Shown here piece after piece: positions 9,836 through 60,339 of a stretch of 64,000 nt of DNA (positions within the stretch are counted from its first letter, which is position 1; every line of letters starts with the position of its first letter). A program made the translations under genes and the position numbers. The notes beneath the pieces are model-generated. The model was not told where the DNA came from. It searched no databases and was given only the letters and a program-made list of their open reading frames with translations. This DNA comes from a virus (lineage: Duplodnaviria > Heunggongvirae > Uroviricota > Caudoviricetes), in the IMG/VR virus record IMGVR_UViG_3300025011_000026, one strand, 5' to 3'.

Positions 9836-9914
9836 AAAATTACGTTATTGTTGTTTAATATAAATAATTACATTTAAATTATAATTAAATTTTAATAAAG
9901 GAGAATGATAAATT

Positions 9915-10238
9915 ATGAACACAATAATTATCAATGGAACTAAAATCCAAACAAGTGGTAATAATATTTCAGTTGTAAATGGAATTATATATTGTGATGG
10001 AAAGGTTGCTTTATCTGGTTTATCAGGTGACGTAAATATTAAATTTGAAGGCGATTTGGCATCTTTAAAATGTGATGGAAGTGCTGAGATAAGTGGTAGT
10101 ATAAAAGGCAATGTAGATGTCGGAGGATCTTTAGAGTGTGGTGATGTCGGAGGAAATGTTGATGCAGGTGGAAGTATACGATGTGGCAAGGTGTCTGGAG
10201 ATATTGATGCTGGAGGTAGCGTTAAGTGTAGTCGGTGA
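9915..10238 (+). CDS. bactofilin-like beta-helical repeat protein
   Basis: tandem G-x-V/I-x-x-G repeats (GNVDVGGSLECGDVGGNVDAGGSIRCGKVSGDIDAGGSVKC). Confidence 0.45.
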   Translation: MNTIIINGTKIQTSGNNISVVNGIIYCDGKVALSGLSGDVNIKFEGDLASLKCDGSAEISGSIKGNVDVGGSLECGDVGGNVDAGGSIRCGKVSGDIDAGGSVKCSR

Positions 10239-10273
10239 TTCAATAAATTATTCATAAATACTAAAATAATTAT

Positions 10274-10302
10274 TTGACATGTAGGAAGTAAAATGTTATA
10301 AT
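10274..10302 (+). promoter_or_regulatory. consensus promoter TTGACA-N17-TGtTATAAT
   Basis: read directly; upstream of 10351 gene. Confidence 0.55.
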
Positions 10303-10350
10303 GAATAAGTAGAGAAGTTACATAAGAATCGAGGAGGTGATAAATCTTAA

Positions 10351-10914
10351 TTGAATTTTAACAGACCAAAGAATGAATCAGAAACACATTTTCTACTAAA
10401 AGAAATATCTAAATACATATTATTTGGTTGGGGATATAAAATGATTGGAACAGAAGTCCATGGCATGTGGGACTTAGACATTGGTAAAAAGAGAAAAGAA
10501 ATTATAGATTGCGTAGGACTTAAAAAGATATCAGAAGGCAGAGGTAAATTTCATTATGATATCAAAGGAATTGAAGCAAAAGCAAGTTTGTCAGATTATA
10601 ATAATGGATTTTGTTGCGCTCCTGCAATGAGTTATGTTATAAGTACAGTAAATACTATTCCAGTTAATATTTTGCCTCAATCTGTAGGATTAATTGAAGT
10701 AGATTTTGATATCTTTGAATTAAAGAAATATTCACAGAAAATCCCTGATATGCAAGGAGTTAAGTTAGTAAAAAGAGCAAAAAGAAAAATTGATAGTAGA
10801 TTTAAAAGTGAAGAAAAGTATAGGAAGTTTTGTAGTGATTGTTTAGAGAAAGTGGCGTATAGAAGCAGTTCAGAGTTGTTGTTTTGGAGAAATTATATAG
10901 AGTTTGTCAATTAG
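10351..10914 (+). CDS. hypothetical protein (187 aa), TTG start
   Basis: downstream of consensus promoter 10274..10302; RBS GAGGAGGTG. Confidence 0.5.
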   Translation: MNFNRPKNESETHFLLKEISKYILFGWGYKMIGTEVHGMWDLDIGKKRKEIIDCVGLKKISEGRGKFHYDIKGIEAKASLSDYNNGFCCAPAMSYVISTVNTIPVNILPQSVGLIEVDFDIFELKKYSQKIPDMQGVKLVKRAKRKIDSRFKSEEKYRKFCSDCLEKVAYRSSSELLFWRNYIEFVN

Positions 10915-40903: not shown

Positions 40904-42463
40904 TTGAATAAATTAAAAAATAAAATTGTTGTAGTTAGTGGTTTTAGTGCTTGTGTTGATGGGGATACAGAATATTTCAATGGTACGAGATGGATAAAAA
41001 TAAAAGATTATTCTGAAGGGGATGAGGTTTTACAATATCATTCAGATGGGACTACAAATTTAACATATCCACAAAAATATATCAAAGAACCTTGTAAAGA
41101 AATGTGGTATTTTAGAACGAAACATGGATTAAATCAATGTTTAACAGATGAACATGAAGTTTATTACATTACATCAAAAAATAATTTATATCATAAGACG
41201 TTTAAGGAGATAAGAGAGCAACATAATTCTAATAAAAATGGTTTTAGTGGTAAATTCATAACTACTTTCAATTATGGAGGGAAAGGAATTGAATTAACTG
41301 ACAATGAGATAAAATTAATGTGTGCTGTAATTTGTGATTCTTCTTTTCCAAACGGTACAAATAAATGTTTTTTTAATCTTAAAAAAGATAGAAAAAAAAA
41401 TGCTTTAAGAAAATTACTTAAAGAAATGAATTACGAATGGGAGGAAAAAGAATATGACTCAATGAAGGGGTATACAAGATTTTTCTTAAATGCTCCAAGA
41501 AAAGAAAAGGAATTTTCCCCATACTGGTATAATTGTAATCAGCACCAACTCAAAATAATTTGTGACAACATTATTCAATGGGATGGTAGTACATCCAGTG
41601 ATAGTATAAGATTTTTCTCTACTTCAAAAGATACTGCTGATTTTATTCAATTTGCTTTTTCGGCTTGTGGAATAAGAGCGAATTTATTAGAAAATGATAG
41701 GAGGGGAAGAATAAAGTATAATGAGACGACAAATAAAGAATATATTACTAAATCTATTGATTATGTGATAAATATTTGCAATAGTAAATTATTATCATTA
41801 ATAAGAGATAAAAATAAAAAAATCGAATTTAGCAAATACATAACTAAAGATGGATTTAAATATTGCTTTACAGTACCTAGTGGAATTTTAGTTTTAAGAA
41901 GAGATGGTTGTATATTTATAACTGGCAATTGTGGTAAAGACTCAATTCAAAAATACATATCTGATAATTACAATTACCAAATGGTGATATCACATTCATC
42001 TCGTCCTATGCGTCCAAATGAAGATGAAGGTAATCCATATTATTTCATTACAAGAAAACAATTTGAAGATATGATTAAACAAAATGAATTTATTGAGTGT
42101 AGGAAATATAATACACTTGTAAATAATGTGAATGATGTTTGGTATTATGGAGTTAGTAAAAATTCTATTGACTTAACAAAAAATAATTACATAGTAGTTC
42201 TGGATATTTTGGGATTAATAGAGATTAAAAAATATTTCAAAGATAATGTAATTTCATTCTTTATTGATGTTGATGAACCAATTAGAAAACAACGTGCTAT
42301 TAATCGACAAGGATTTGACCCCACAGAATGGGATAGGCGTTATCAAGATGATATTAAAAGCTTTTCTCAAGAAGTAATAAATAAAGAAGTTGATTATATT
42401 ATTGAGAATTATGATTTTGATAAATGTGTAAGTGAAATTCTTAGTAAGATTGGAGAGATTTAA
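40904..42463 (+). CDS. guanylate-kinase-like (d)NMP kinase interrupted by an intein in the P-loop
   Basis: N-extein KIVVVSGFSA plus C-extein CGKDS... reconstitutes a Walker A loop; C-extein carries the GK signature SHSSRPMRPNEDEGNPYYFITRKQFEDMIKQNEFIE. Confidence 0.6.
   Translation: MNKLKNKIVVVSGFSACVDGDTEYFNGTRWIKIKDYSEGDEVLQYHSDGTTNLTYPQKYIKEPCKEMWYFRTKHGLNQCLTDEHEVYYITSKNNLYHKTFKEIREQHNSNKNGFSGKFITTFNYGGKGIELTDNEIKLMCAVICDSSFPNGTNKCFFNLKKDRKKNALRKLLKEMNYEWEEKEYDSMKGYTRFFLNAPRKEKEFSPYWYNCNQHQLKIICDNIIQWDGSTSSDSIRFFSTSKDTADFIQFAFSACGIRANLLENDRRGRIKYNETTNKEYITKSIDYVINICNSKLLSLIRDKNKKIEFSKYITKDGFKYCFTVPSGILVLRRDGCIFITGNCGKDSIQKYISDNYNYQMVISHSSRPMRPNEDEGNPYYFITRKQFEDMIKQNEFIECRKYNTLVNNVNDVWYYGVSKNSIDLTKNNYIVVLDILGLIEIKKYFKDNVISFFIDVDEPIRKQRAINRQGFDPTEWDRRYQDDIKSFSQEVINKEVDYIIENYDFDKCVSEILSKIGEI
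40952..41929 (+). mobile_element. intein (326 aa) inserted in the kinase P-loop; degenerate LAGLIDADG-like homing endonuclease core
   Basis: starts CVDGDT (block A) directly after GFSA; ends ...FITGN followed by +1 Cys; LMCAVICDSSF and IICDNIIQWDGS resemble degenerate LAGLIDADG helices. Confidence 0.55.
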
Positions 42464-44955: not shown

Positions 44956-45017
44956 ACTTTCTAATAAAATGGTAATAATAGTAAGATATATACACCTTGT
45001 ATTAGTTTCTTTTGTGG

Positions 45018-45125
45018 GTCTAAAGTTTAGACTGGTCGGGTATAAAACTTAGACGGGTCTAGAATTTAGACAGGTGTTTTCTGTGGATAAGCATCATATA
45101 ACCAGTATAGAATTTAGACAGGTTG
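45018..45125. repeat. four direct iterons TTTAGAC(T/G/A)GGT(C/G/T) (45025, 45048, 45065, 45113), two as exact 16-mers TAGAATTTAGACAGGT
   Basis: read directly; immediately downstream of the 45131..45559 gene stop; candidate origin. Confidence 0.6.
45082..45090 (-). promoter_or_regulatory. DnaA box (perfect TGTGGATAA) within the iteron array
   Basis: read directly. Confidence 0.5.
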
Positions 45126-45130
45126 ACATT

Positions 45131-45559
45131 TTAACTATCTCTTTCTTCCATCATTTTTTCATATAATTTGTCTGCACTAATAACTCCTTCTTTAAAAGAT
45201 TGTTCAATAATTTCTGTTTCTTCTGAGCATAGAAAAATCATCTTTTTGATGTTGCCATTTACACCAGCACTTGCAGTCCACACATAACCATTCTCTTCTA
45301 GCCAATTCAATCCATTTATACAAGATTGGCGAGATAAACCAGTAAGTTTAATTAATTGAGAAATGCTGATCCAATCACCTGTTTTAGCAAATCCCCATGT
45401 TTTTCTAATCATTAAGAGATAAACCTTTAAAGCTGAGAAATTACTAATTCTAGGTATCAATTCATCAAATACAATATTAGGAACCTCCATATAATTTTTC
45501 TGTGGTTTAGGTAATCTGAACATGTTTTCATCCTTCTTTCTAGCAATAAAAACAGGCAA
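45131..45559 (-). CDS. putative replication initiator / replisome-organiser-like winged-HTH protein
   Basis: wHTH-like ISISQLIKLTGLSRQSCINGLNWLEENGYV; iterons start 6 nt after its stop. Confidence 0.45.
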   Translation of the reverse strand: MPVFIARKKDENMFRLPKPQKNYMEVPNIVFDELIPRISNFSALKVYLLMIRKTWGFAKTGDWISISQLIKLTGLSRQSCINGLNWLEENGYVWTASAGVNGNIKKMIFLCSEETEIIEQSFKEGVISADKLYEKMMEERDS

Positions 45560-46143: not shown

Positions 46144-46515
46144 TTATTCAGACATGAGATTGTTCATAGTTTTAAGAAAAATACTATCTTTCTTTTTATC
46201 AGAGACTTCAGGAACCATCTCAACCAGCTCATCTCTATCCACAATAACTTCATTTTTCTTTCTCGTTTTCTTCGGAACTTTTACACTATTTACAGAAACC
46301 TTAATATTGCCTGACACAATGTTATCTGTAATTTTTTCATTAAATTTATCCAATTTAAGTTTTTTTGGATAATAATCCATGTAAAATTTTAAACAAGTTT
46401 TAACCAACTGTGAATTAGAAATTCCTTGTTCTTCAATTTGATTAACATAATCAATTAGAATTTTGTCATTTTTTGAACTAAGGTTTGTGCCAACATATTT
46501 TCTCAGGCTACCCAT
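46144..46515 (-). CDS. ParR-like centromere-binding adaptor (putative)
   Basis: small gene immediately downstream of and coupled to the parM-like gene; basic C-terminal half. Confidence 0.4.
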   Translation of the reverse strand: MGSLRKYVGTNLSSKNDKILIDYVNQIEEQGISNSQLVKTCLKFYMDYYPKKLKLDKFNEKITDNIVSGNIKVSVNSVKVPKKTRKKNEVIVDRDELVEMVPEVSDKKKDSIFLKTMNNLMSE

Positions 46516-46517
46516 AA

Positions 46518-47495
46518 TTACTCATCCATATCCCAATATTGTTTTCCTCCATCAAGATATGCTAAAGCATTAGTCAATTGAGGATGTTCACTTGATAACT
46601 TTGCTGTATTATCAAGTTTAATATTAAGATAAGGTAACAATACTTCGGCAGGGCCTCCCATGACACAAGTTTCTAATGCCTGTTGTAAATCAAATGTTTT
46701 TTCCAAAGAAGAAATTACATTATCGATATAATCTATAAGAATTTCATCTTTTGTCCTATCTAGATCATAACTTTGCTTTCGCAATGTAATCTCTGACCGT
46801 TTAAGATATTGCAATAATTCATGAGGTTTAAATCTAGTTCCATTCTTAGAATTAAAAGTTGTTGTAATTTGCTCTAGTATTTGATCAAAACCAAATTGTG
46901 TATAACTTACTTTAGAATCTAAAATTACTTCAGTATTTTCAGGATTAATATCGTCACCTTTACGCCATAATGAAGCATCTAAAGTTCCACCACCAAAATC
47001 TAAAACCAATAGGGGATATTCATATCTTCCTTTTTGAGAATCAGTTATTCCAGATTGAATGTAGCAAATAGAATCAGTTATTTCAATATTGATATTACCT
47101 CTATCATCACCGATATTAATAGTTTGTGCTTTCATAGTTTTTAATTTTTCAAGATATGCATTTGCATGTTGTTTGTAATAACCAGCCGGAGTACCAACTA
47201 CTAATTTAACTTTAATATCTTTACATTCTGGAAAACTTAAAGCAATAGAAGTTAATGTACATAAATCAAAATGTGTTGTGGTGTATTTATCTGGATTGAT
47301 ATAAATTTTTCCTTCTGGATCTCCTACAAGATGACTTAAGCCATCTTTTTTAACTAAGTAAGTATTACTTTTTAGTAGACCATCGCCCTCAGTATTAAAC
47401 TTAATTCTTGCTCTCAATACTATCCCTTTACTGGTTTTGTAGTACGAATTTCCTGCATCAAGACCTAAAATTTCTTCATCGTTCATCTCATTCAT
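46518..47495 (-). CDS. actin-like segregation ATPase (ParM/StbA/Alp family)
   Basis: phosphate-1 motif LGLDAGNSYYK, phosphate-2 LVLDFGGGTLDASLW, adenosine motif region; 325 aa. Confidence 0.7.
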   Translation of the reverse strand: MNEMNDEEILGLDAGNSYYKTSKGIVLRARIKFNTEGDGLLKSNTYLVKKDGLSHLVGDPEGKIYINPDKYTTTHFDLCTLTSIALSFPECKDIKVKLVVGTPAGYYKQHANAYLEKLKTMKAQTINIGDDRGNINIEITDSICYIQSGITDSQKGRYEYPLLVLDFGGGTLDASLWRKGDDINPENTEVILDSKVSYTQFGFDQILEQITTTFNSKNGTRFKPHELLQYLKRSEITLRKQSYDLDRTKDEILIDYIDNVISSLEKTFDLQQALETCVMGGPAEVLLPYLNIKLDNTAKLSSEHPQLTNALAYLDGGKQYWDMDE

Positions 47496-47585
47496 TTTAA
47501 ATTCCTCCTAAATAATATTTCAATGTATGCGAATAGTGTATCATTAATTGTGTACTTTTACAAGTTTTCAATTGTAGGTAAATAT

Positions 47586-47660
47586 ATCTACAGTTGTAAG
47601 TATATATACTTGTCTACAAATGTAAGTATGTTAATATAGACAAACTTATCTATATTAACA
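47586..47660. repeat. centromere (parC)-like repeats upstream of parM: two direct repeats TCTACA(G/A)(T/A)TGTAAGTAT, 14-bp palindrome AAGTATATATACTT, inverted repeat TTAATATAGA-N8-TCTATATTAA
   Basis: read directly at 47588..47604, 47613..47629, 47598..47611, 47631..47658. Confidence 0.5.
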
Positions 47661-48156
47661 TATCTATTAATTAGAAAAGTCAGAAACTTCAGAGATGATT
47701 CTATCTTATATGATTATTTTTTAAAGATCAGGGCAAAGTAATGCTAGAGGACGAGGAAAGTTAACATATAGAAGGAGTAGTTTGATGATTAAGTCCTGAG
47801 AAATCAGAGCTTTTCTTTTTTTGTAAAGTATACTTGGGTATATTGGTAAACATTTAGTATACTCATATTTTATAATAATATTATTTATATATTAAACCAT
47901 CATACGTACTCCTATAAACACCTAATTATCCATTTTTAAACCATTAATATAAGCTATTTTCAGGATGTAAAATTTAAGAAAAGATGAATTATCATCAATC
48001 TAAGCCTTTGAAAATAATGTTTGGTGTGATTGTGTTAGTATGATTAGTTAAGGTTGTTTTAGGTTAAAGATTTCCCATTTATTACTATACATAACGTACA
48101 AACAATACTCAATAAGATTAAACATATCAACACCACACAAAGGAGGTCACAAAGCA

Positions 48157-50273: not shown

Positions 50274-50279
50274 TTGATT

Positions 50280-50837
50280 ATGAAAAAACCAAACAAAAAA
50301 TTATTATTCTCTCTTGTATTATTAACATTATTATCAATACCACATCCTGTATCTGCCAAAGGAGAATTAACTACTAAACAAGCAAAAAGCATTTTAAACA
50401 TCATTATTGATAAAACTTATACAATTCTCACATATTCGTCTTCTCCTTGGATTTATCCTGTAGATGGAATTGTCACAAGTCCTTATGGGCCAAGAGAATC
50501 TTCGATAGATGGATTTCATCATGGGTTAGACATCTCTGCAGTAGAAAACACTCAAGTTCATTGTTCTAAATCAGGGATCGTAGTTAAAGCAGAATTTAAT
50601 GAAATGGTTGGAAATGTTGTGTGCATTAATCATTCAGATGGATTTCAAACTATGTATGCACACAACAATAAATTATTAGTCAAAGTTGGAGATAATGTAA
50701 ATCAAAATGATGTTATTGCATTGTCCGGTAATACTGGATTATTGTCAAGAGGAGCGCATGTACATTTTGAGATTCGTACCAATAATGGAACAAATTCATT
50801 AAATCCAATGAATTATTTACCTGCTAAACAAAAATAA
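50280..50837 (+). CDS. secreted M23 (LytM-type) peptidoglycan endopeptidase
   Basis: signal peptide KKLLFSLVLLTLLSIPHPVSA; M23 motifs HHGLDISA and HVHFEI. Confidence 0.75.
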   Translation: MKKPNKKLLFSLVLLTLLSIPHPVSAKGELTTKQAKSILNIIIDKTYTILTYSSSPWIYPVDGIVTSPYGPRESSIDGFHHGLDISAVENTQVHCSKSGIVVKAEFNEMVGNVVCINHSDGFQTMYAHNNKLLVKVGDNVNQNDVIALSGNTGLLSRGAHVHFEIRTNNGTNSLNPMNYLPAKQK

Positions 50838-50838
50838 A

Positions 50839-50855
50839 CCCCTCAAAATGAGGGG
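50839..50855. terminator. bidirectional intrinsic terminator CCCCTC-aaaat-GAGGGG
   Basis: follows M23 stop on + strand; on - strand followed by GGTTTATTTTTGTTT after the small peptide gene. Confidence 0.5.
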
Positions 50856-50881
50856 ATGAAGTAGGATCATATTGATATTCA

Positions 50882-50983
50882 TTATTGAATTAATCTTCCT
50901 AATTGTTGTGCAATATCAACTAATTGATATGATCCATACCCTATTAATCCTACTCCAATTGCTGTTCCAAATATTAAAAACAT
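50882..50983 (-). CDS. small hydrophobic peptide (33 aa, MFLIFGTAIGVGLIGYGSYQLVDIAQQLGRLIQ)
   Basis: RBS AAAGGAGTG 8 nt upstream of ATG on - strand; own terminator; Gly-zipper-like TM then amphipathic tail; below cutoff. Confidence 0.4.
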   Translation of the reverse strand: MFLIFGTAIGVGLIGYGSYQLVDIAQQLGRLIQ

Positions 50984-51227
50984 AAATTTTCACTCCTTTA
51001 AATCATATTTCATTAACTGTATTATTACCAAACTATATGTCGAATATACATGAATTGATGTAAATTTTAAGACAAGAACCCTATATTAGCCACCTATACC
51101 AAGGATAATACACCCTAAATCCTACAGTCCTTTAATATCAATGGTCTTAGACTTGAAAATGTGGGGTCTTCTTATATAAGGAGGCAGATTTGCCGACTGT
51201 TTTAATTTTCAAAGGAGGTTGTTTACA

Positions 51228-51479
51228 TTGAATGAATTTTTAAGTTGGTCAACAAAGATTTGTTTGGCTATGACTGCTCTTGGTGGAGGATTGGCTATGC
51301 TCATGATCGTCTGGTCTGGGGTCATGGACATCATCGGAAATGGGCAATGGAAAGCTCAAGCAAAAGAACTGAAAGAAAGTGTAATTCGTGGATGTATCAC
51401 TATAGTCGTTGGGCCTTGGATCATAAAAATCTTGTGGAGTATATTAAAAGGAATCTTTCCAACACTTCCTACATTTTAA
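51228..51479 (+). CDS. pilin-like two-TM protein (VirB2/TrbC-like), TTG start
   Basis: two hydrophobic helices flanking charged loop GNGQWKAQAKELKES; GGAGG 9 nt upstream of TTG 51228; first gene of T4SS-like cluster. Confidence 0.4.
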   Translation: MNEFLSWSTKICLAMTALGGGLAMLMIVWSGVMDIIGNGQWKAQAKELKESVIRGCITIVVGPWIIKILWSILKGIFPTLPTF

Positions 51480-51509
51480 TTATTACAATTATAAAGGGGA
51501 TGATCATAA

Positions 51510-52544
51510 ATGCTTACAGTTGGAGAAGTAGGAGATGCAATTATTAACTTTTTTATTAAACCACCATCTCCTGAAAATGTTGATATAATACATGGGGCAT
51601 TATTCAATGCTCCTTCTCCAGAAACAGTAGAGAGTGTCAATAATGCTCTATTTAATGCACCTACACAACAAGATATTACAACAGTCAATGGAAGATTAGA
51701 GCATTTTATTACTGACTCATTAGTACAAAACTTTGCACAATTATTTCTTCATACACCAAATGTATTGGCAGAAAACCCAACCATATTATCTTTATATACT
51801 TTCTTTTTAAAAATAATTATTTCATTTTCATTTGCAGGAATAGTATATTTTGGAATTATGCAAATCATGAATAAGGGTAGTAAACACAATACAACGGAAT
51901 ACATTGTTAAGATAGCTCAATCAATGGTAATTATAAATATAGCAATTATAGCATTGCCATTGCTAATTGAAGCAACAAACAAATTTACTATAGCAATTCT
52001 TTCTCTTGGTGGATCTGAAGCACAAATGGTAAAAGCATTAAGTCCTCAATATGGATTAGGATTAATCATATTCACATTAATTTTTGCATTAATTCTAATT
52101 AATCTAATATGGTTCTATTTCATGAGAATGATTTCTATTATGTTTCTAATTGCAACTGCTCCTATATTCTTCTTTTTATGGTTATTCCCTAAATATCAAA
52201 ATATGAGACAGGTTTGGATTGATGAATTATTAGATAATCTAATTGCACCAATTATACATGCAATAATTATGGTTATTTGGTTAGGGTTTGAATCATCAGT
52301 ATCAAAATCAAATCATGGAGCACTTTATCATGTAATGCTTTCCATAGCTGCTGGTTCATTTATGTTAAAAGCACCTTCTTATGTCCAACAATGGATTTCT
52401 CATGGTCATCAATCACCAAATCCTATACAAATGTTTAAAGAGATAAAGTATGGGTTAAGTCCTAGAAAACTTATCGGTTATGGAGGATTTGGAAGAATGG
52501 GAGGAAGTATGTTTAGAGGAAGAGGGACTACAAAAAGGAGGTAA
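51510..52544 (+). CDS. polytopic membrane protein, VirB6/TcpH-like
   Basis: N-terminal periplasmic-type region with ALFNAPS/ALFNAPT repeats then at least 5 predicted TM segments. Confidence 0.45.
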   Translation: MLTVGEVGDAIINFFIKPPSPENVDIIHGALFNAPSPETVESVNNALFNAPTQQDITTVNGRLEHFITDSLVQNFAQLFLHTPNVLAENPTILSLYTFFLKIIISFSFAGIVYFGIMQIMNKGSKHNTTEYIVKIAQSMVIINIAIIALPLLIEATNKFTIAILSLGGSEAQMVKALSPQYGLGLIIFTLIFALILINLIWFYFMRMISIMFLIATAPIFFFLWLFPKYQNMRQVWIDELLDNLIAPIIHAIIMVIWLGFESSVSKSNHGALYHVMLSIAAGSFMLKAPSYVQQWISHGHQSPNPIQMFKEIKYGLSPRKLIGYGGFGRMGGSMFRGRGTTKRR

Positions 52545-52548
52545 TTCA

Positions 52549-52896
52549 ATGTTTAATAATGAGATGTTTGAAACTAATCAAATCATTGAAATGAAAGACG
52601 AAATATTTTATGGACTTACAGGAAAACAAACTATTTATTTATTAGGTGGAATAGTGCTTAGTTTATCTGTATTTAATACTGCATTACCTATTATTGCAAA
52701 ACTATTCATTCTACCAAATATAGGTATTCCTACTGCAATTTTAACTAAAACTGATGTAGATCAAGGGATAGTTTCTTTCTTTAAATTCAAATGGAGAGGA
52801 GTGACAAAACAAAATGTTACAATACAATCTTTACCCAAAAGCAAATTATCTTTTAGTAACAAAAGAAGAGCAGACGCTACTTCGATCAAAGTTTAA
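52549..52896 (+). CDS. small 2-TM membrane protein (VirB3/PrgI-like, putative)
   Basis: ATG 52549 after AAAAGGAGG; hydrophobic hairpin IYLLGGIVLSLSVF...LPIIAKLFILP; precedes VirB4 gene as in T4SS loci. Confidence 0.35.
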   Translation: MFNNEMFETNQIIEMKDEIFYGLTGKQTIYLLGGIVLSLSVFNTALPIIAKLFILPNIGIPTAILTKTDVDQGIVSFFKFKWRGVTKQNVTIQSLPKSKLSFSNKRRADATSIKV

Positions 52897-54322
52897 GTAT
52901 TTATTAAATTCTCTAAATGAACCATTTAAGATTATTTGTAAAACTGACTTAAATCAATTAAACAAAGAAATACAAGTTAATGAGTCAAGTTATTCTCTTA
53001 CTACTAATGCAAATATTTACGAAAATTTGCGTAATTCTGGAATAGACTATACTCAAAATCAATTACTAATTGCAAGTAATATTCAAATAAAGGAGTATAG
53101 AAAGTACATTGGTGTTACTGAAAACAATGTAAAATATTTTGCTAAATCAATCAAGGTTATCCAATTTCCACAAATGCTTTCTACTGGATTCATAAACAAC
53201 TTAATGATTTCTGACACTGAAATTGCTCTTACAATCTTTCCATTGCCACAAGAAGAGGCTGTAAAGGCAGTAAAAAAGAGAATTGATACTACTGAAGCAA
53301 ATGCTAATTGGAAGGCCGTAAAGAACCCTAATCAAGAGTTTTATGTAGAAGATGAAATTGTATCAAAACTTCAAAAGACTATGGTTGATCTTATGGGTAA
53401 TGAGGAAAAACTTTGTATGGTTGGATTATATATTTTAATTAAAGGACAAACACTTGAACAATTAGAAACAAAATCAAAACAAATATCAATGCTTTTAGAT
53501 GGAATGCAAATCAGATTCAAATTCGCTAATTGTGAACATTTTAATTGTTTCAAGAATTTTAGATCATATAAAGAAATTGACTATGTAAAGGAGTTAAAAG
53601 TGTTTTTAACAAGTGTGATTAGTAATTTTTATCCATTTGTTAGATATGTATCAGGTGATGGAATTATAATTGGATATGATTATCAAAATTATCAATTAAT
53701 TAAGATTAATTTTGCAGAGCAATTCAATCTGTCATGGTTCATTTTTGGAATTTCAGGAAGTGGAAAATCATTTGCTGTGAAATCAATTGTCAAGAAAATA
53801 TCTAGTCATAAGAAGATTTATATTCTTGATATTACTGGTGAATACGCCAAATTAAAATCAAAGAATATTATCATTATATCTAAGGATTTTGAGAAATTCC
53901 TACTGTACACCGATTTTAAAGATTGCATGATTGTAATTGATGAAGCATGGGATATTTTAAAAACTGATGCAGTTATTAAAAGAGTGGTAGCAATTGCCAA
54001 AGGATACAGAAAACGAGGAGTAGGTGTTTTAGTCTGCACACAAAACATTGCTGATACAAGTAAAGAGGATATTGAATTAATTATTAAAAACTGTGCTAAT
54101 ACTTTAATTCTTCACTTAACCTCCTTAGAACTTCAACATATTAGTGAATACATGAATATACCATCTCATATTGTCGATTATCTTTCTAGGATTGAAAAAG
54201 GACAAGGATGGATGACCATAGGAACAAAGAAATATGCTTTTAGCCCCATATTTAGTAATGAAGAATATTTATTATTTAATACCAATTATGAGGAAATGAA
54301 AGGGGTTGGTTATAATGGGTGA
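52814..54322 (+). CDS. VirB4/TcpF/TrsE-family T4SS ATPase
   Basis: Walker A GISGSGKSF; DPKGEY-like ILDITGEY; Walker B VIDEAWD; RKRGVGVLVCTQN (RKYG...TQS motif). Confidence 0.7.
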   Translation: MLQYNLYPKANYLLVTKEEQTLLRSKFKYLLNSLNEPFKIICKTDLNQLNKEIQVNESSYSLTTNANIYENLRNSGIDYTQNQLLIASNIQIKEYRKYIGVTENNVKYFAKSIKVIQFPQMLSTGFINNLMISDTEIALTIFPLPQEEAVKAVKKRIDTTEANANWKAVKNPNQEFYVEDEIVSKLQKTMVDLMGNEEKLCMVGLYILIKGQTLEQLETKSKQISMLLDGMQIRFKFANCEHFNCFKNFRSYKEIDYVKELKVFLTSVISNFYPFVRYVSGDGIIIGYDYQNYQLIKINFAEQFNLSWFIFGISGSGKSFAVKSIVKKISSHKKIYILDITGEYAKLKSKNIIIISKDFEKFLLYTDFKDCMIVIDEAWDILKTDAVIKRVVAIAKGYRKRGVGVLVCTQNIADTSKEDIELIIKNCANTLILHLTSLELQHISEYMNIPSHIVDYLSRIEKGQGWMTIGTKKYAFSPIFSNEEYLLFNTNYEEMKGVGYNG

Positions 54323-56021
54323 AAAGATAAGCAAGATTAAAGATATGGCAATTAAATCAGGTAAATATTCTGCTTTGTATACTGGACAATTTATTTTAGG
54401 TGGATTAGGCTATGCTGTTCAAATTGCTTCAAATGGAATATTAGGAATGAGCATTCCAGATTATAAACTGCCTAATTTGAAGTTTGGAGATGATAAAACT
54501 TCATTAGGAGATAGGGTAGTGTTAACTCCTAGTAAATTTCTTCTTAAAGGAAATGGCATAGTAATTGGCAAAGACTATAATACAAAAAATGTACTTACTT
54601 ATCCTGTAGATCATTTTGACGATCTTATGAAAAATTTTATTTATGTTGGGTCTCCTGGAAGTGGAAAATCAAATTTAGCAGAAAATATAGCAGTTCAAAT
54701 ATCTAAAATTAATAATTTACCTAATTTTAATACAGCAGGATTTTGTGTGATAGATGTAGCTGATGGAGCATTGATTGATAATATTTTAATGTCTATTCCT
54801 GAAAACAGATTGGAAGATGTAGTTTTATTAGATTTCTCTAATAAAGATTTTCTGCCAGGAATTAACCTTCTAGAATTCGATGAAAAAGTAGAGAAACAAT
54901 TCCCACACTTTATTCATGCTGAAATAATCTCATTCTTTAAAAAACGATTTGGTGAACAAATTGGTTATGCTAGTGAGGATCTTTTATCAAACTCGTTGAA
55001 CGCAATTCTGAAACAAACTGACTATCCTAAAACACTATTAGGAATTATCAAAATGCTAACTGAAGTAGAATATCGTGAACAAATAGTTGCATCTTTGAGA
55101 AAAAATAAAAGGAATGCTTCAGTAGTCAGATATTGGGATAGATTTGAAGCTCAATCTCCTTCTGTTAAAAGAGATATGGTTAAGCCTTTATTAAATAAAG
55201 TTGGAAATTTAACCAATAATGATTATTTAAAATCTATTATATGTCAAAACAAATCTACCATAGATTTTAGAAAAATTATGGATAGTGGCAAAATTCTTCT
55301 TATAAAAGCACCAAAGGTTGCTGTCGGAAAAGTTAATATAGAAATATTGATACCATTGATTCTTTCAAAGTTTTGGATCGCTGCTTTATCAAGATTTGAT
55401 ATTACTAATACTAATTTACGCCGTCCATTCTTTGCCTTTCTTGATGAACCTCAAATGTATCTATCAAATGAAGCAGGAATAGAAGAAATGTTGACGGAAA
55501 TGAGAAAGTATAGATTTGGACTTCATTTTTTCTTTCAATCCCCTGAACAAACGCAACTTCAATCAGTTATCAAAATGATGTTAGAAGTCAATCCTCAAAT
55601 TATATCATTTGCTATGGGTAGAGGTGGAGCACAAACATTATTTAGAGAATTTGAAACTGGTGATGAAGAAAAAGACATGTCAAATAGATATGCAATTCTT
55701 AATCTCCCAAAACATCACGCACTTTGTAGATTTTTATATAAAAGCGAAAAGAGTGTATCTATTATTAAATGCGATCCTCCAATTAAACCTTTGCGTAAAA
55801 AAGTACCTGATATTATTACTGAAAACAGTCAAATGTATTTACGTTCTGTTGATGAAATTATGGAAGAAATTCTTGAATCGGATTATATCCCTGAACCAGA
55901 TTTTAGTTTAGGGGAGGTGAGCAATAATGAACAGCAAAGATTTAATGTTGAAAAAATTGATTGTGGGCCAAAAATACGCCCATTTAACGGCGAGAGATTT
56001 AGAGATAATAAGAAGTATTAG
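54315..56021 (+). CDS. T4SS coupling-protein-like (VirD4/TcpA/FtsK-HerA superfamily) P-loop ATPase
   Basis: N-terminal hydrophobic segment; Walker A VGSPGSGKSN; Walker B FAFLDEPQ; RKYRFGLHFFFQSPEQ. Confidence 0.5.
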   Translation: MGEKISKIKDMAIKSGKYSALYTGQFILGGLGYAVQIASNGILGMSIPDYKLPNLKFGDDKTSLGDRVVLTPSKFLLKGNGIVIGKDYNTKNVLTYPVDHFDDLMKNFIYVGSPGSGKSNLAENIAVQISKINNLPNFNTAGFCVIDVADGALIDNILMSIPENRLEDVVLLDFSNKDFLPGINLLEFDEKVEKQFPHFIHAEIISFFKKRFGEQIGYASEDLLSNSLNAILKQTDYPKTLLGIIKMLTEVEYREQIVASLRKNKRNASVVRYWDRFEAQSPSVKRDMVKPLLNKVGNLTNNDYLKSIICQNKSTIDFRKIMDSGKILLIKAPKVAVGKVNIEILIPLILSKFWIAALSRFDITNTNLRRPFFAFLDEPQMYLSNEAGIEEMLTEMRKYRFGLHFFFQSPEQTQLQSVIKMMLEVNPQIISFAMGRGGAQTLFREFETGDEEKDMSNRYAILNLPKHHALCRFLYKSEKSVSIIKCDPPIKPLRKKVPDIITENSQMYLRSVDEIMEEILESDYIPEPDFSLGEVSNNEQQRFNVEKIDCGPKIRPFNGERFRDNKKY

Positions 56022-56691
56022 GGATTTTAAAATATTCTCCAGAACTCAAATTCAAATAATGTTCTTTCAATCCAAACAAAGTTTAACTATTTGCAATCGA
56101 AGGCTGGCTGAAATTGAAAGATTAGAATTTATAAAAAGGACACCAATAGCATTAAATGGGGAATCATTAGTCACTGCGGGAAAATTGCTTTGTCAAATTG
56201 GTGGGGTATATATATCAAAATTACCATCCGACTATACGCATCAACTATTAATAAATGAAATTTATGCTTTATTGTTCAGAGAGCAGAATTTAAATAGAAT
56301 TACTATCAAGCAATATAAACCAGAATTTGTTTACAGATACAAAGATAGAGAAAATGGCAAACAATATATTTTTAGGTCTGATATATTAGTTGTATTAACT
56401 AAGAATAATCAAGATACCACTTTGCTATTCGAAATTGATGCCGGAACAGAAAGCAAGAAACAATTAAGAGAAAAGATTGCTGTTTATGAAAAAGTGTCTC
56501 AAAAAGTGAAAGGGTTTCCTCGATTATTCTGGTTGACTAATACATTGGGATATCGAAAATTAACAAATTTAGATAAACAAATTAATATTGCTCAAGTAGA
56601 AGAATTGAGAAACGACTTTTATATTTTTACTCGTTACCCAGATATGAAGAAGATTAAATTAATTCCTGATATTGTGGTCTGGAAAATATAA
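55927..56691 (+). CDS. Replic_Relax (replication-relaxation) family protein
   Basis: N-terminal wHTH LTARDLEIIRSIRDFKIFSRTQIQIMFF typical of the family; follows T4SS ATPases. Confidence 0.45.
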   Translation: MNSKDLMLKKLIVGQKYAHLTARDLEIIRSIRDFKIFSRTQIQIMFFQSKQSLTICNRRLAEIERLEFIKRTPIALNGESLVTAGKLLCQIGGVYISKLPSDYTHQLLINEIYALLFREQNLNRITIKQYKPEFVYRYKDRENGKQYIFRSDILVVLTKNNQDTTLLFEIDAGTESKKQLREKIAVYEKVSQKVKGFPRLFWLTNTLGYRKLTNLDKQINIAQVEELRNDFYIFTRYPDMKKIKLIPDIVVWKI

Positions 56692-56712
56692 CTGGAACGG
56701 AGATGTTTAATT

Positions 56713-56880
56713 ATGGGATTTATAAGTAATTTAATTAGTGGTTTTGATAAGCCAGAAATTGATATTGATGAATTAGTAAATTTTATAATTGAAGAAACAC
56801 ATGTTAGTAGAGATATTATAGAATTGATTTTAGATACCGAGGAAATTTATTTAAGGATGAGAGGAATTATTATTGATTAA
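56713..56880 (+). CDS. small acidic protein (55 aa)
   Basis: ATG 56713 with weak RBS; followed by intrinsic terminator; below cutoff. Confidence 0.3.
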   Translation: MGFISNLISGFDKPEIDIDELVNFIIEETHVSRDIIELILDTEEIYLRMRGIIID

Positions 56881-56886
56881 GATTTT

Positions 56887-56914
56887 AAGGATGATTTAAT
56901 TATCATCCTTTTTT
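56887..56914 (+). terminator. intrinsic terminator AAGGATGAT-ttaatt-ATCATCCTT + TTTT
   Basis: 9-bp perfect stem followed by T-run; closes the T4SS-like operon. Confidence 0.55.
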
Positions 56915-56956
56915 AATATATTTTATAAAAAAATGATTGACAAGGTATTATTTGCC

Positions 56957-56984
56957 TTGTTTTTGTGTATATTTAATGTATAAT
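56957..56984 (+). promoter_or_regulatory. candidate promoter (TTGTTT-N16-TATAAT, TG directly abutting -10) for the DGQHR-like gene; a consensus TTGACA lies at 56937 but 36 nt from the -10
   Basis: read directly. Confidence 0.35.
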
Positions 56985-57006: not shown

Positions 57007-58557
57007 ATGAAAATTCTATTTTCTGATAAAGTTAAGGATATTAAATTGGAAGGAGATATACATGATATGAGTAGGAAAAGTAAGGAGAGATTTACACAGA
57101 TGGATATTGGTTTGGTTAATGCAGTAAAGGAAGAGGTGATGAACGGAATGAGTGATAATCACTCAGAAGAAGATCAAGAAATGATTCAGGAGATGGAAAG
57201 CATCACTCGTGAAGAAACTGCCGTTGGTTATGAGAGTGCAAATAGTTTTGAAGAGAATAGTAAAAGTGGAGATGTTATTAATTTGGGTGAGAAATCTATG
57301 CCAGCATTTGGTAGTTTAAGTGAAAAGACTAAAATAGAAGAGTCAAATGGGGATGATAAAGAGCAAATGTCAACTGAAGAATTTAATGAAACTAGAAATG
57401 AAGTTTTAGATAGTAAGAGTGAGTTCGAAAAGAAAAAGGAATTAAGAGAAGCAAATAAATTGAAACGAGATATGAGAAGTAAATTAAAGCAATTAGACAG
57501 TGAAAATGATGATAAATCATGGGAACTAAACAATGTCCAAATCGTCTTGCGTGATGGTAAGCCTTATAAATATTTGGTATCACTATCTTGTATGCAGTTG
57601 GCTGAGTGGTATATCTCTAAAAAGCTGATTTACGATTTTGGCGTACAAAGAGGCAGTAAAACCAATAAAAAAGGCGAGGAAGTACCTATACTTTTTCTAA
57701 AACATTGCAATGATATCAAAACTGCAATTTTAGATGGGTCAATTCACGGGGGAACATTGAGTCTAAATTTGCCTACTGACAATAATACACAACTTTTTTA
57801 TGACGAAGACAATATGACTTTAAGTTCTGACGTTCCCTTAACCATAAATGATGGTTTTCACCGCATATATGCAAGTTATTTGTGGTATAAGGAATTTGTT
57901 AAACCAAATAGTACATGTAAAAGTCCTGAAACGTTCTATTTTCCAGCCAATATTGAGCATATTAGTAGACAAGCGAGTTGTGATTTATTCAAAGAATATG
58001 CGGTTATGGGGAAATCTATTAGTAAGAACAGGATTAGTGTCCATAATGTATTTGATAAAAATTATGAAATCACACAGAGGGTTGCAAAATCATCTCAACT
58101 TCGTGGACGTATAGAAATGATTTCTAATTCAATTAAAAGAAGTAGTCCTTGCATTTTTACTTATGGTACAATATTAAATGGAGTATCTGAATTTAAGGTT
58201 ATTACTCAGGGGAAAGAAGAAGAAGTTGGTAATTTCATCATTGAGTTCTTAAATGAATTAATCGAATTATTTCCTAATCTAATGGGTCATGTTGATTCAG
58301 AAACAAGAGCGATAGAAAAACAAAAGAGTTTTGTACTCGAAAAAATGTTTCAAAATTCTTATTTTGTGTTAGCTAGTCAATTACAAGGTAAAGATGATTG
58401 GAAGAGTAGATTGGCTAAATTGACACAAAACAATTTCCTATCAAGAAGTAATCCAATGTGGGGCTTTTGCCTTAGAGAAGGCGAAAAAATAGTGAATTCT
58501 TCAAAGGTGCAAAAAACAATTACTGAGAAAATTATTGACTATGTGATGGCAAACTAA
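57007..58557 (+). CDS. ParB/Srx-fold DGQHR-like (DndB/DUF262-related) protein with long acidic N-terminal extension
   Basis: FGVQRG motif followed about 75 aa later by INDGFHRI (DGQHR/DGQQR-type motif); own promoter and terminators. Confidence 0.45.
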   Translation: MKILFSDKVKDIKLEGDIHDMSRKSKERFTQMDIGLVNAVKEEVMNGMSDNHSEEDQEMIQEMESITREETAVGYESANSFEENSKSGDVINLGEKSMPAFGSLSEKTKIEESNGDDKEQMSTEEFNETRNEVLDSKSEFEKKKELREANKLKRDMRSKLKQLDSENDDKSWELNNVQIVLRDGKPYKYLVSLSCMQLAEWYISKKLIYDFGVQRGSKTNKKGEEVPILFLKHCNDIKTAILDGSIHGGTLSLNLPTDNNTQLFYDEDNMTLSSDVPLTINDGFHRIYASYLWYKEFVKPNSTCKSPETFYFPANIEHISRQASCDLFKEYAVMGKSISKNRISVHNVFDKNYEITQRVAKSSQLRGRIEMISNSIKRSSPCIFTYGTILNGVSEFKVITQGKEEEVGNFIIEFLNELIELFPNLMGHVDSETRAIEKQKSFVLEKMFQNSYFVLASQLQGKDDWKSRLAKLTQNNFLSRSNPMWGFCLREGEKIVNSSKVQKTITEKIIDYVMAN

Positions 58558-58620: not shown

Positions 58621-60339
58621 CTACTTATAAATTCCCCAAACCAATTTTTCACCAGTTTCAGGATGTTTACCAGCCGATTTTTGATTGCCACTGCAACATC
58701 TAGATATGCCATTCGCAGACATATTATATTTTATTGAAGCATCCAACATACTCTCAAAAATTTCATTTGTTGTTATACAAATTACCTTTTTCTTACAAGA
58801 ATCATAATTTTCTGCTTTAGCATTTTTTAAACTATATTCTATTTCATCTTCTGTTTTCAAAAGATATTTTTCATAATACATCCAAACCAATGGCTCACCA
58901 GTTATCGACTTACCTGCTGATTTATGCTTACCTTTACAACATGCAGATATATTTGGTCTTATTGATTCTCTGCCATTGAATGAAGCTTCATATATAGAAT
59001 CAAATATTTCTCCAGTTGTAATGCAAATCACTTTCTCGCATATTTCTTCTTTTGGGTTATAAGAACACCATCCTAATTCTGTTCCTTTTTTAAGATAACT
59101 CCTTATCGCACTACTACTCAAATTTAAATTTTCCCCTATTTTAACTGTGCTTTTAATTCCTTCATTCCATAAACTACATGCTGTTTTAACTAAATTTCTA
59201 CACCCTGCTTCTTGCACTCTTAACCAATCTATATCTTCTTCAGTAAAATTTAATAACTCTGGCAATTTACTATTCATAATACTGTCCCTTATCCACCCTA
59301 TTTCAGACGTTCTGCAATCAATTATTAAATAATTTTTAATTTTATTACTCCTAGCCAACCATTCCTTATCAAAATCATTGATTTGTATATCATCTAATGA
59401 ATCCCACTTACTTTTCGTTTCTTCGTAGTGTTGAATTCCTTGACACTCTATCACACCATTTATTTTATTTATGTATATGTCATATCTATAATTTTCACAC
59501 CATTTAAAAGTAGTTTTTGATAATTGAATGATAAATGTTTCGTGTAATTGTTCTAAAACATTTATCATAACCTTTTCGGGGATGCTCACACCATCTCCAC
59601 ATCTGTTGCAACCGAAACCGTGATTTACTAAGTTAGAAATTTTAATCATTTTTTCATAACCACAATCAGGACATTTAGTTAATACATATTCACCTGACCC
59701 AAAAGAATATTTATGTGCATCATTTATATTCACAAAGAAATGTGTTAAATGAGGATGTGTGACAAAAATAGTATTGCACATATCACAATCTAGACTACCC
59801 TTTTGTCCTCCTGTAAAAGAACTTATATGTTTTTGTTCAGGTTTGTGTTCTGGATTATCTAAACAATTAAACCAATATCCTTTTTTATCTATGCCTTGTG
59901 AAGCAAAACTTACATCTTTGGGAGATAATTTATTACCATCTTTATCAACATTCAGTTCGCAATTCCAACGATTAATTATTATATCTGCTTCATTTTTATT
60001 TTTATTATCATAGCACCATTTGTAAAAAGATGTCCATTGTTTATCTCCTGCGTTTGCACATCTTAAACAATAATATTTTCCATCTTCTCTAACTTGTGAA
60101 GTATAGTCAGACCACCTTATATTTTCTAATAATTTTCCACATCCATCACATTCAATATTTACAAATACTCTGGCCTTATCTTGTAGATCCTCTACTTTAA
60201 CTTTTATTATTGCACCTCGTATATATTTTTCTTCGCCATTCTTATTTATGTATTTTGGTATCTCATATCCTTTTGCTTCATACCATTTAATATTTTTACT
60301 ACCTAACCCAACCTCAGCCTCTTTTGTTATCAATCCCAT
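58621..60339 (-). CDS. multi-zinc-ribbon protein with central Vsr/DUF559-like endonuclease core and two C-terminal about 60-aa tandem repeats
   Basis: CDGC..C.RC, CDMC, CPDC, CNRC ribbons; YRYDIYINKINGVIECQGIQHYEE resembles the DUF559/Vsr motif (DF...IEvDG.qH); repeats VICITT.EIF.S...CC.G..KSAGK...GE.LVW x2. Confidence 0.5.
   Translation of the reverse strand: MGLITKEAEVGLGSKNIKWYEAKGYEIPKYINKNGEEKYIRGAIIKVKVEDLQDKARVFVNIECDGCGKLLENIRWSDYTSQVREDGKYYCLRCANAGDKQWTSFYKWCYDNKNKNEADIIINRWNCELNVDKDGNKLSPKDVSFASQGIDKKGYWFNCLDNPEHKPEQKHISSFTGGQKGSLDCDMCNTIFVTHPHLTHFFVNINDAHKYSFGSGEYVLTKCPDCGYEKMIKISNLVNHGFGCNRCGDGVSIPEKVMINVLEQLHETFIIQLSKTTFKWCENYRYDIYINKINGVIECQGIQHYEETKSKWDSLDDIQINDFDKEWLARSNKIKNYLIIDCRTSEIGWIRDSIMNSKLPELLNFTEEDIDWLRVQEAGCRNLVKTACSLWNEGIKSTVKIGENLNLSSSAIRSYLKKGTELGWCSYNPKEEICEKVICITTGEIFDSIYEASFNGRESIRPNISACCKGKHKSAGKSITGEPLVWMYYEKYLLKTEDEIEYSLKNAKAENYDSCKKKVICITTNEIFESMLDASIKYNMSANGISRCCSGNQKSAGKHPETGEKLVWGIYK

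Follow-up and report, generated by a model that had tools for sequence, protein, structure and literature searches.

A conserved type IV secretion-like operon in a large, probably viral, genome from groundwater

The 64,000-nucleotide stretch analysed here (the window), taken from virus record IMGVR_UViG_3300025011_000026 and comprising bases 1-64000 of JGI contig Ga0209728_1000074 (92,482 bp), carries an operon that very probably encodes a type IV secretion system (T4SS)-like apparatus. The operon is tightly packed on the + strand from position 50274 to an intrinsic terminator at 56887-56910, and its genes, which overlap or abut, are translationally coupled. It encodes an M23 peptidase, a pilin-like protein, a VirB6-like and a VirB3-like membrane protein, a VirB4-family ATPase, a type IV coupling protein (T4CP)-like ATPase, a Replic_Relax protein and a small acidic protein. 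The seven open reading frames (ORFs) claimed in an earlier note, made from the letters of this DNA, were all present on the + strand, and the terminator it had placed at the operon end was found by terminator scan. That note had read the genes as a Gram-positive type IV secretion module; profile, structure and comparative evidence upheld a Gram-positive-type, T4SS-like set that includes a relaxase-family protein and a coupling ATPase, whereas the further step to a conjugative or mobilisable phage-plasmid goes beyond this evidence. From the window sequence alone only the M23, VirB4-class and Replic_Relax assignments are secure, and the pilin, VirB3, VirB6 and coupling-protein calls, which would be weak on this sequence by itself, draw on orthologues and profiles. 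VirB4, a T4CP and a relaxase together form the signature of a conjugative system in genomic screens. Every conjugative T4SS has a T4CP (PMC12102498).

The compact VirB4-family ATPase is encoded at 52880..54322 (+). Its longest ORF opens at 52814 and is 502 amino acids (aa) long; the start probably lies at about 52880 because the orthologues are 480-482 aa. The full motif set that had been read from the letters (GSGKS, DITGEY, DEAW and RKRG..TQN) was found in the translation. The NCBIfam models VirB4_plasma (3.8e-30), conju_CD1110 (1.5e-28) and CedB (2e-13) were matched, the match including the VirB4 N-terminal domain, at scores under every equivalog cut-off (99.5 vs 325 bits; 104 vs 590 bits). 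Judged by these scores the window ATPase is a VirB4 family member that stands outside the named subfamilies. Against the Protein Data Bank (PDB) the 502-aa protein matched VirB4 (4ag5) at 2.7e-6, and a profile of the compact-VirB4 clade (480-585 aa) matched the same structure at 4.6e-32, followed by HerA at 1.5e-10 and a packaging NTPase (STIV B204) at 5.7e-8. In a library of 1.8 billion proteins the VirB4 profile found only 3 cluster representatives below 1e-30, after which came ordinary VirB4s of 750-1050 aa that were matched in two stretches. The compact phage-associated VirB4s appear as a clade of their own.

Assignment of the ATPases to terminase or packaging families had been named in the earlier note as the result that would speak against a secretion module. 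One such match was obtained, between the ORF at 52814-54322 and phrog_2666 'terminase large subunit' (5.6e-30). It is outweighed by the VirB4 profile match, by coverage of the N-terminal domain and by the position of the gene 3' of VirB2-, VirB6- and VirB3-like genes, and the label is probably a propagated mis-annotation. A terminase or packaging reading of VirB4 was rejected, as VirB4 came out 24 orders of magnitude ahead of STIV B204 in the PDB profile search.

The second ATPase, a VirD4/TrwB-like coupling ATPase of 571 aa (54306..56021, +), carries a Walker A motif GSPGSGKS and a Walker B motif LDEPQ and had no Pfam match. The proposal of an FtsK/VirD4-like ATPase with an N-terminal transmembrane (TM) segment held in part: the protein is T4CP-like by sequence, but the TM segment, in a short N-terminal helix, is weakly hydrophobic (best 19-residue Kyte-Doolittle window 1.28). 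A word-indexed search returned 170 relatives, which beyond the close clade showed 26-34% identity (E 1e-42 to 1e-23); the relatives carry TrwB_AAD_bind, T4SS-DNA_transf, TraG-D_C and DUF8128 domains and many come from Patescibacteria. A profile of the family matched DotL (1.9e-9) and TrwB (1.4e-8) best in the PDB, ahead of HerA. In the AlphaFold model (mean confidence, pLDDT, 81) a RecA-type core was seen with a long N-terminal helix and an all-alpha insertion at residues 193-312, between Walker A (K121) and Walker B (D380/E381). T4CP-like proteins alone were found in 113 phage records, all with Bacillus-type hosts, and in the IMG/VR contigs L033-L039 (L-numbers label the compared loci and contigs), where the rest of the module was absent. 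T4CP-like genes also occur on large Clostridium botulinum plasmids, directly 3' of a TrbC/VirB2-family gene. On plasmid pCLK (L025, NC_010418.1), for example, positions 7583-10383 hold a TrbC/VirB2-family gene and then the gene of an 800-aa T4CP-like ATP-binding protein; the phages show the same pairing, and it recurs in many plasmids of group I C. botulinum and C. sporogenes that PLSDB classes as non-mobilizable.

The Replic_Relax protein (55927..56691, +), a putative DNA-nicking protein of the MOBC class with an N-terminal helix-turn-helix (HTH)-like region and a PD-(D/E)XK-like core, matched PF13814 at 1.6e-11 (45.1 bits vs a gathering score of 25.3), in agreement with the original call. 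This Pfam family is the MOBC class of CONJscan (PMC5357655), and the relaxase component of the T4SS signature appears to be present at family level. An alignment of the window clade, L011, CP-51, SPO1L1, phage G and L012 showed H105, E133, D152, E169, D171, T174, E175, K183 and Y187 to be invariant. These residues would fit a PD-(D/E)XK-type metal site, and because the candidate catalytic residues are invariant the nuclease can be argued to be active in all aligned members. The ratio of nonsynonymous to synonymous change (dN/dS) was 0.07-0.12. Predicted secondary structure consists of N-terminal helices and then an alpha-beta-beta-beta-alpha-beta core; the structure model was poor (pLDDT 57, shallow alignment) and was left out of the fold search, and no sequence relative was found in the PDB.

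MOBC relaxases are conjugative and combine a winged HTH with a PD-(D/E)XK domain; TraX binds direct repeats 70-120 bp from its nick site, and no covalent intermediate has been observed (PMC12857230). With pAD1 TraX and CloDF13 MobC the window protein shares its class, the N-terminal HTH-like region and the core with invariant acidic residues. It differs in that a TraX-like direct-repeat array was not found near its gene and in that phage annotations treat Replic_Relax as a replication initiator. In the papers on phages Izhevsk and Kirov, Replic_Relax together with ParM-like and ParG-like genes was read as a sign of a plasmid-prophage.

Three genes between the peptidase and VirB4 encode the putative membrane subunits. 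The first product, of 86 aa (51219..51479, +), has two TM segments and is a candidate VirB2-like T4SS pilin or small two-TM membrane subunit; its match to T4SS_pilin (7.5e-4) lay under the gathering score. When orthologues from all lineages were each run against Pfam, T4SS_pilin was matched nine times in a pool that contained nine pilin-like proteins, and the best match, phage G gp150 at 3.7e-6, was above the gathering score. The dN/dS of the gene was about 0.1-0.2. The second product, a VirB6/TrbL-like polytopic protein of 344 aa (51510..52544, +), has five strong hydrophobic segments and matched TrbL at 0.016. By tblastn it led to phage G gp153 (2.4e-7), which matches TrbL_4 at 1.8e-11; TrbL_4 was matched by the L012 and L041 orthologues too, the phage-G-type VirB6-like proteins reaching 9.8e-17. 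The third, a PrgI/VirB3-like two-TM protein of 115 aa (52549..52896, +), overlaps the VirB4 start and matched PrgI at 3.8e-4, a family that was matched by 6/7 VirB3-like orthologues in the pooled scan (best 2.1e-5); its gene was invariably directly 5' of VirB4. The VirB6-like and VirB3-like calls, individually weak, are supported by repetition across orthologues, topology and gene order.

The first gene of the operon (50274..50837, +) encodes a secreted M23 (LytM-type) peptidoglycan endopeptidase (Peptidase_M23, 5.9e-28). As had been claimed, it begins with a signal peptide, of Sec type (MIMKKPNKKLLFSLVLLTLLSIPHPVSA, with KGE after the cleavage mark), which corresponds to a single hydrophobic segment at residues 10-28, and by inspection the metal-binding motifs HxxxD (HHGLD) and HxH (HVHFE) are intact. 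Orthologues were found in L013, L014, L015 and L020 and were absent from L005 and L011; dN/dS was 0.12-0.17. The peptidase, carried by most relatives, is by this distribution an accessory gene of the module; it is a candidate VirB1-like wall-opening enzyme.

Three features fill the 380-bp gap 3' of the M23 gene. The first is a G+C-rich hairpin at 50839..50855 (CCCCTCAnnnTGAGGGG), called on the minus strand by the terminator scan and kept in relatives, which is the terminator of a small minus-strand ORF and perhaps also of the M23 gene. That ORF, at 50882..50983 (-), encodes an antisense hydrophobic peptide of 33 aa (MFLIFGTAIGVGLIGYGSYQLVDIAQQLGRLIQ); it is conserved across six lineages (alignment A3) and was called as a gene in L007 and L005. 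Its product resembles small membrane peptides of the type-I-toxin or Fst kind, or may be an additional small subunit of the T4SS. An additional + strand TM ORF of about 70 aa was seen within the same gap in L015 and L020. The third feature is a conserved non-coding block at 51036..51130 (+), visible in the same alignment, in which an imperfect inverted repeat (51038-51074) is followed by AAGACAAGAACCCTATATTA. Its first 15 bases, TGTCGAWTATACATG, were exact in 13/13 window-clade loci and are thus invariant despite near-saturated synonymous sites; the block occurs once in the window and was absent from L011, L012 and phage G. The block could be the operon promoter/operator, an origin of transfer (oriT), or both; in pIP501 the tra promoter and oriT overlap. 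The oriT-like inverted repeat for which a search had been proposed was not recovered in any stronger form, as repeat, tandem-repeat and folding scans yielded only this block, without a significant hairpin, and repeat and tandem-repeat scans found no direct-repeat array at the candidate oriT.

At the other end, the last gene of the operon (56713..56880, +) encodes an acidic 55-aa protein that had no family match in Pfam, PHROG or NCBIfam and has orthologues of 43-69% identity in all window-clade relatives. The terminator (56887-56910, +) is followed by a second hairpin at 56939-56961, and relatives keep a hairpin at the operon end with a different sequence.

The order pilin, VirB6, VirB3, VirB4, T4CP, Replic_Relax, 55-aa protein, DndB-like protein was kept in L005/L006, L013, L014, L015-L019 and L020. 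Amino acid identity of the T4SS genes was 72-93% across L005/L006 and L013-L020, and in the distant lineage L011 six core genes were syntenic at 30-47% identity. Measured against five to six relatives the core genes had dN/dS of 0.07-0.29, with synonymous sites near saturation, so the module ORFs are real genes and not chance ORFs. No near-identical DNA was found when the module was searched by megablast against phage and plasmid collections. Recent insertion from a plasmid or an ICE (integrative and conjugative element) was ruled out by synteny and purifying selection across diverged lineages and by the lack of a compositional break.

The same architecture recurred in Bacillus phage G, L012, L040, L041 and L042. 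In phage G the set comprises Replic_Relax (gp146), PhageMetallopep (gp149), a pilin-like protein (gp150), TrbL_4 (gp153), a small protein (gp154), a compact VirB4 (gp155) and a T4CP-like protein (gp156). Gene set and order are those of the window and a tubulin-like gene lies in the neighbourhood, but identity is 21-27%, the T4CP-like protein has a DUF8128 N-terminal extension of about 400 aa, Replic_Relax lies upstream on the other strand, PhageMetallopep stands in for M23, and tubulin replaces the actin-like gene. L012 encodes tubulin, Replic_Relax, pilin, TrbL_4, VirB4 and a DUF8128 T4CP-like protein. L040 has thymidine kinase, a thymidylate synthase gene split around a GIY-YIG endonuclease gene, dihydrofolate reductase, pilin, TrbL_3 and VirB4. 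In L042 a holin, a GH25 endolysin and tubulin are followed by three genes (140, 284 and 114 aa) and VirB4; the three had no family match and occupy the pilin-, VirB6- and VirB3-like positions. A subset of the module is present in SPO1-like and CP-51-like Herelleviridae, namely pilin-like, actin-like, T4CP-like (907-911 aa) and Replic_Relax genes, without VirB4, VirB6 or VirB3 homologues; in CP-51 these are gp97, gp96, gp91 (911 aa) and gp90, in the same order as in the window. Core synteny, purifying selection and recurrence in L011, phage G and other phage-like contigs point to a phage-associated lineage of minimal monoderm T4SS, which by these comparisons is old and selected, and not to a recent plasmid insertion.

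The published account of phage G notes only two ATPases, TraC-like gp155 and TraD-like gp156, of 'function entirely unknown', both of which were absent from the virion proteome (PMC12484599) and are for that reason, at least in phage G, not ejection hardware. Earlier reports of module parts in phages are limited to these two, and in our literature searches the full module of six to seven genes was not found described for any phage. According to a 2025 review of plasmid mobility no phage-plasmid has been found to be conjugative (PMC12282955), and the word 'phage' does not occur in a 2025 review of T4SS nomenclature (PMC12857230).

Among cellular systems the monoderm conjugative T4SSs (MPF-FATA/FA: pCF10 Prg, pIP501 Tra, ICEBs1 Con and the C. 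difficile CTn CD1110 family) formed the comparison group. The VirB4 models nearest to the window protein are those of the CD1110 family and of Mycoplasma ICEs, and a PrgI-like VirB3, a VirB6-like protein, a wall hydrolase, a T4CP and a relaxase likewise stand in a single operon. Unlike those systems the window has a VirB4 of about 480 aa (vs about 750-900), an M23 hydrolase in place of SLT/CHAP, a VirB2-like pilin and a phage-like replicon, and it is without an adhesin and a VirB8-like protein (PrgL/TraM/TcpC/ConB). The T4SS of Patescibacteria (the candidate phyla radiation, CPR) shares VirB4, PrgI, VirB6, a VirB2-like pilin (PF18895) and M23-domain hydrolases, with VirB8 mostly undetectable (PMC12102498), and this group supplies the nearest non-phage relatives of the window coupling ATPase. 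It differs in being chromosomal, usually without a relaxase and with its T4CP encoded elsewhere, whereas T4CP and Replic_Relax are inside the operon in the window. The crenarchaeal Ced system has a comparably minimal VirB2-like pilin, VirB6-like protein and VirB4-like ATPase but imports DNA, is archaeal and chromosomal, and is not known to include a Replic_Relax-type relaxase. Membership of a Ced-type import family was not supported (CedB 49.8 bits vs a cut-off of 700; CedD 24 vs 600).

Downstream of the operon lies the gene of a DndB/DGQHR-like protein (57007..58557, +; Pfam DndB 3.5e-16, TIGR03187 DGQHR 4.5e-6) with a strongly acidic, low-complexity N-terminal third. Relatives keep its position 3' of the T4SS operon at only 25-39% identity vs 72-93% for the T4SS genes, and its dN/dS was 0.29-0.53. 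There was no PADLOC match to the protein. The gene may lie outside the machine, and an anti-defence or DNA-mimic function is possible. Next to it a 572-aa treble-clef/HNH-like protein (58621-60339, -) matched phrog_4538 and homing-endonuclease families and is found as several diverged copies per genome in relatives L013-L020; HNH and GIY-YIG homing endonucleases are dense in the genomes of relatives generally.

Upstream, on the minus strand, are an actin-like (ALP/ParM-type) protein (46518-47495; ALP_N 1.7e-10) and its partner gene, for a putative adaptor of 123 aa (46144-46515). An actin- or tubulin-like gene adjoins the module in the window (where it is inverted), L005, CP-51, SPO1L1, L012 and L042; between the window and L005 the actin-like genes differ too much for a tblastn link. 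Long imperfect inverted repeats at 47548-47662, 5' of the actin-like gene (e.g. 47627-47643 / 47646-47662, 94% complementarity), are a possible centromere or operator of the ALP system. A RepO/HTH_36-like gene lies at 45131-45559 (-), and just downstream of it are iteron-like tandem repeats of 17-22 bp (GGGTATAAAACTTAGACGGGTC) at 45016-45075. The repeats, the RepO-like gene and the actin-like gene with its partner look like a replication-origin/partition cassette. In L005, a 237-kb relative, a large serine recombinase (Resolvase/Recombinase/Zn_ribbon_recom; 4066-5658, -) lies immediately 5' of the actin-like gene and T4SS module, and no counterpart was seen in the window.

The window has a G+C content of about 28%, with no break in composition at the module, and the same sequence is present in a groundwater metagenome (ENA PRJNA268031). 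Its first 43 kb hold, on the + strand, a large-phage replication and nucleotide gene set: a DnaB-like helicase, primase, exonuclease, Pol III alpha-like polymerase, ribonucleotide reductase, topoisomerase II subunits, ThyX, guanylate kinase and several HNH/homing endonucleases. The Pol III alpha is 40-46% identical to polymerases of large Firmicutes phages (Geobacillus E3, Psychrobacillus Perkons, 949-like lactococcal phages and Clostridium botulinum phage c-st). Just past the window end the minus strand encodes an Amidase_3 endolysin, a Peptidase_C1/Big_2/SPOR protein, proteins of 867 and 1038 aa and a protein with a weak tail-fibre match, and a large BNR-repeat gene lies in the same block. 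IMG/VR holds eight relatives of up to 230 kb. Capsid, portal and terminase genes were not seen in the window, in the 8.7 kb that follow it or in two further regions of a 230-kb relative, where walking through IMG/VR gave DNA ligase and homing endonucleases without structural genes. Exact-pattern metagenome scans for sequence past the window end gave no match, and no integrase or repressor was identified in the window by a Pfam scan that took in its 45 other ORFs. That the element is a phage is well supported, not proven. GTDB genome scans for a host returned no close relative; from the Pol III alpha similarity and a 'sporulation protein' PHROG in a relative we infer a Firmicute host, possibly a spore-former.

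That PHROG match (phrog_10856, 2.1e-24) is to an ORF of the 230-kb relative (L044/L050, IMGVR_UViG_3300025309_000006), which also encodes an NAD-dependent DNA ligase, and it hints at an endospore-forming host. Within the window a 519-aa ORF (40904-42463, +) has a guanylate kinase domain confined to residues 343-512 and a weak LAGLIDADG_3 match at 227-278, which may mark an intein, or a homing endonuclease joined to the kinase gene or sitting within it. Single Pfam matches among the 45 ORFs were to Band_7/SPFH (2.3e-26), VbhA antitoxin (2.4e-6), bactofilin (1.4e-4) and WYL (5.6e-4). A 303-aa ORF at 8864-9775 matched phrog_200 ('lipoprotein', 6.8e-63) and could be the protein with the Band_7/SPFH match. 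No RNA genes came out of the Rfam and tRNA scans.

These results bear on the earlier proposal of a conjugative or mobilisable phage-plasmid with a plasmid replicon. The module or parts of it are long-standing in several phage lineages, and the analysis turned up neither an integrase nor a VirB8-like gene, an adhesin or a demonstrable oriT. For the replicon, the actin-like gene and the RepO-like gene with iteron-like repeats are indeed there, but an actin-like gene also occurs in the SPO1-like and CP-51-like phages examined. The alternative raised at the time, that the phage has repurposed a device for DNA translocation, agrees no less well with the comparative data.

Our tentative interpretation, quite possible though short of probable, is that the operon is a minimal monoderm-type T4SS-like DNA translocation machine of a phage-borne lineage that exports nicked phage DNA by contact. 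A process across the envelope is favoured because a secreted wall hydrolase and membrane channel subunits fit nothing else, and the simplest job for a channel set with two hexameric-type ATPases and a relaxase-family nuclease would be to carry nicked DNA through the envelope. In a cell that is infected or carries the episome, Replic_Relax would bind phage DNA and nick it at a specific site, for which the inverted-repeat block at 51036-51130, just 5' of the pilin-to-Replic_Relax genes, is a candidate. The adjacent actin-like filament system would carry the DNA to the membrane. There the coupling ATPase would dock onto a VirB4/VirB3/VirB6 translocon in which the VirB3/PrgI-like protein anchors VirB4, M23 would open the wall, and DNA would be pumped into a touching cell. 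The outcome would be conjugation-like transfer, a virion-independent, receptor-independent and contact-dependent form of spread. That the actual job of the module is to export phage DNA from cell to cell is a serious yet still doubtful possibility.

Several observations weigh against export. Between 47.5 and 58.6 kb no ORF has the size and topology of a VirB8-like (NTF2-fold) bitopic protein, and no Pfam match to VirB8-like proteins, adhesins or canonical SLT/CHAP hydrolases was obtained in the module ORFs or the 45 other window ORFs. The fold of the 571-aa ATPase does not separate T4CP, VirB4, HerA and DptH. The fold of the block at 51036-51130 is not significant (z = -1.46) and its inverted repeat is weak; to call it an oriT is a guess, and a promoter/operator role could fit. 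Mating would have to last long for a genome of about 230 kb to pass. The Patescibacteria T4SS, of similar composition, is thought to be non-conjugative because a relaxase is usually missing (PMC12102498). Finally, pilin-like, T4CP-like, Replic_Relax and actin-like genes persist without VirB4 and VirB6 in SPO1-like and CP-51-like phages. SPO1 is a virulent phage, and since conjugation would seem to be of little use where the cycle is strictly lytic, at least some of these genes may do their work inside the cell.

An intracellular role is the main rival to export, though we regard it as unlikely. It holds that nicking by Replic_Relax starts or resolves replication and that the coupling-type ATPase is a membrane-anchored DNA pump or organiser without export, with actin or tubulin filaments bringing genomes to a membrane site and the VirB-like proteins serving only as an anchor. 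It would suit the closeness of the module to replication genes, since it follows the replication block in the window and immediately precedes DnaC, DnaB and DnaG in L011, as well as the phage G record note and PHROG labels, which give 'replication initiation by nicking', and the reduced set beside an actin-like gene in SPO1-like and CP-51-like phages. It leaves unexplained, however, the signal-peptide M23, the VirB2-like pilin, the VirB6-like channel and VirB3/VirB4, all of which are under purifying selection, and a full replisome (DnaB, primase, Pol III alpha and topoisomerase) is already encoded.

It is less credible, and in our judgement improbable, that the T4SS serves other ends, such as Ced-like DNA import, protein secretion into neighbours or the blocking of superinfection or host conjugation. 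The matches to the DNA-import components CedB (2e-13) and CedD (1.4e-5) would speak for such a use, although they lie far under the cut-offs. So would the composition (pilin, VirB6, VirB3, VirB4 and an M23-type hydrolase, with no VirB8), which mirrors the Patescibacteria T4SS thought to be co-opted for non-conjugative roles; such systems, however, are mostly without a relaxase, whereas Replic_Relax here shows translational coupling to the T4CP gene and is inherited along with it wherever the module is full.

That the element is instead a conjugative plasmid of large or megaplasmid size that has phage-like genes and uses the module as its ordinary transfer system is very improbable. The unseen capsid, portal and terminase genes and the actin-like partition and RepO-like genes with iteron-like repeats would agree with a plasmid. 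Set against this are the eight relatives in IMG/VR, the weakly matched tail-fibre-like, large BNR-repeat and endolysin genes past the window end, the similarity of Pol III alpha to those of large Firmicutes phages, the density of homing endonucleases and the presence of the same module in an isolated phage, phage G. Least credible of all, and hardly to be entertained, is a reading of the ATPases as packaging or terminase motors or as parts of an anti-phage or Dnd-type defence, for beyond the phrog_2666 label it has only the adjacent DndB-like gene and weak PADLOC matches to HerA and mad8, generic domain matches on which the defence reading was rejected, whereas the VirB4 clade and T4CP family profiles favour VirB4 and DotL/TrwB, the DndB-like protein evolves independently of the module, and pilin, VirB6 and VirB3 partners are foreign to packaging and defence systems.

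Phages and conjugative elements are usually seen as separate routes of horizontal transfer. A complete set of VirB2/B6/B3/B4, T4CP and a MOBC-type protein is found here as a conserved, selected trait of several very large phage-like lineages, habitually linked to actin- or tubulin-like DNA-positioning genes. The broader proposition, that huge phages (the groundwater clade, phage G and related contigs) spread their genomes by a self-encoded conjugation-like T4SS and so are at once virus and conjugative element, is unlikely on balance. If true, it would give them a receptor- and virion-independent means of spread, for example in biofilms, in cell chains or in a carrier or episomal state. As phage G is cultivable and has the same module, either reading, export or intracellular function, is open to experiment. 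If DNA is exported, views on host range, on resistance to phages and on how giant phages spread would change; if the function is intracellular, the module would represent a new use of T4SS parts in viral replication.

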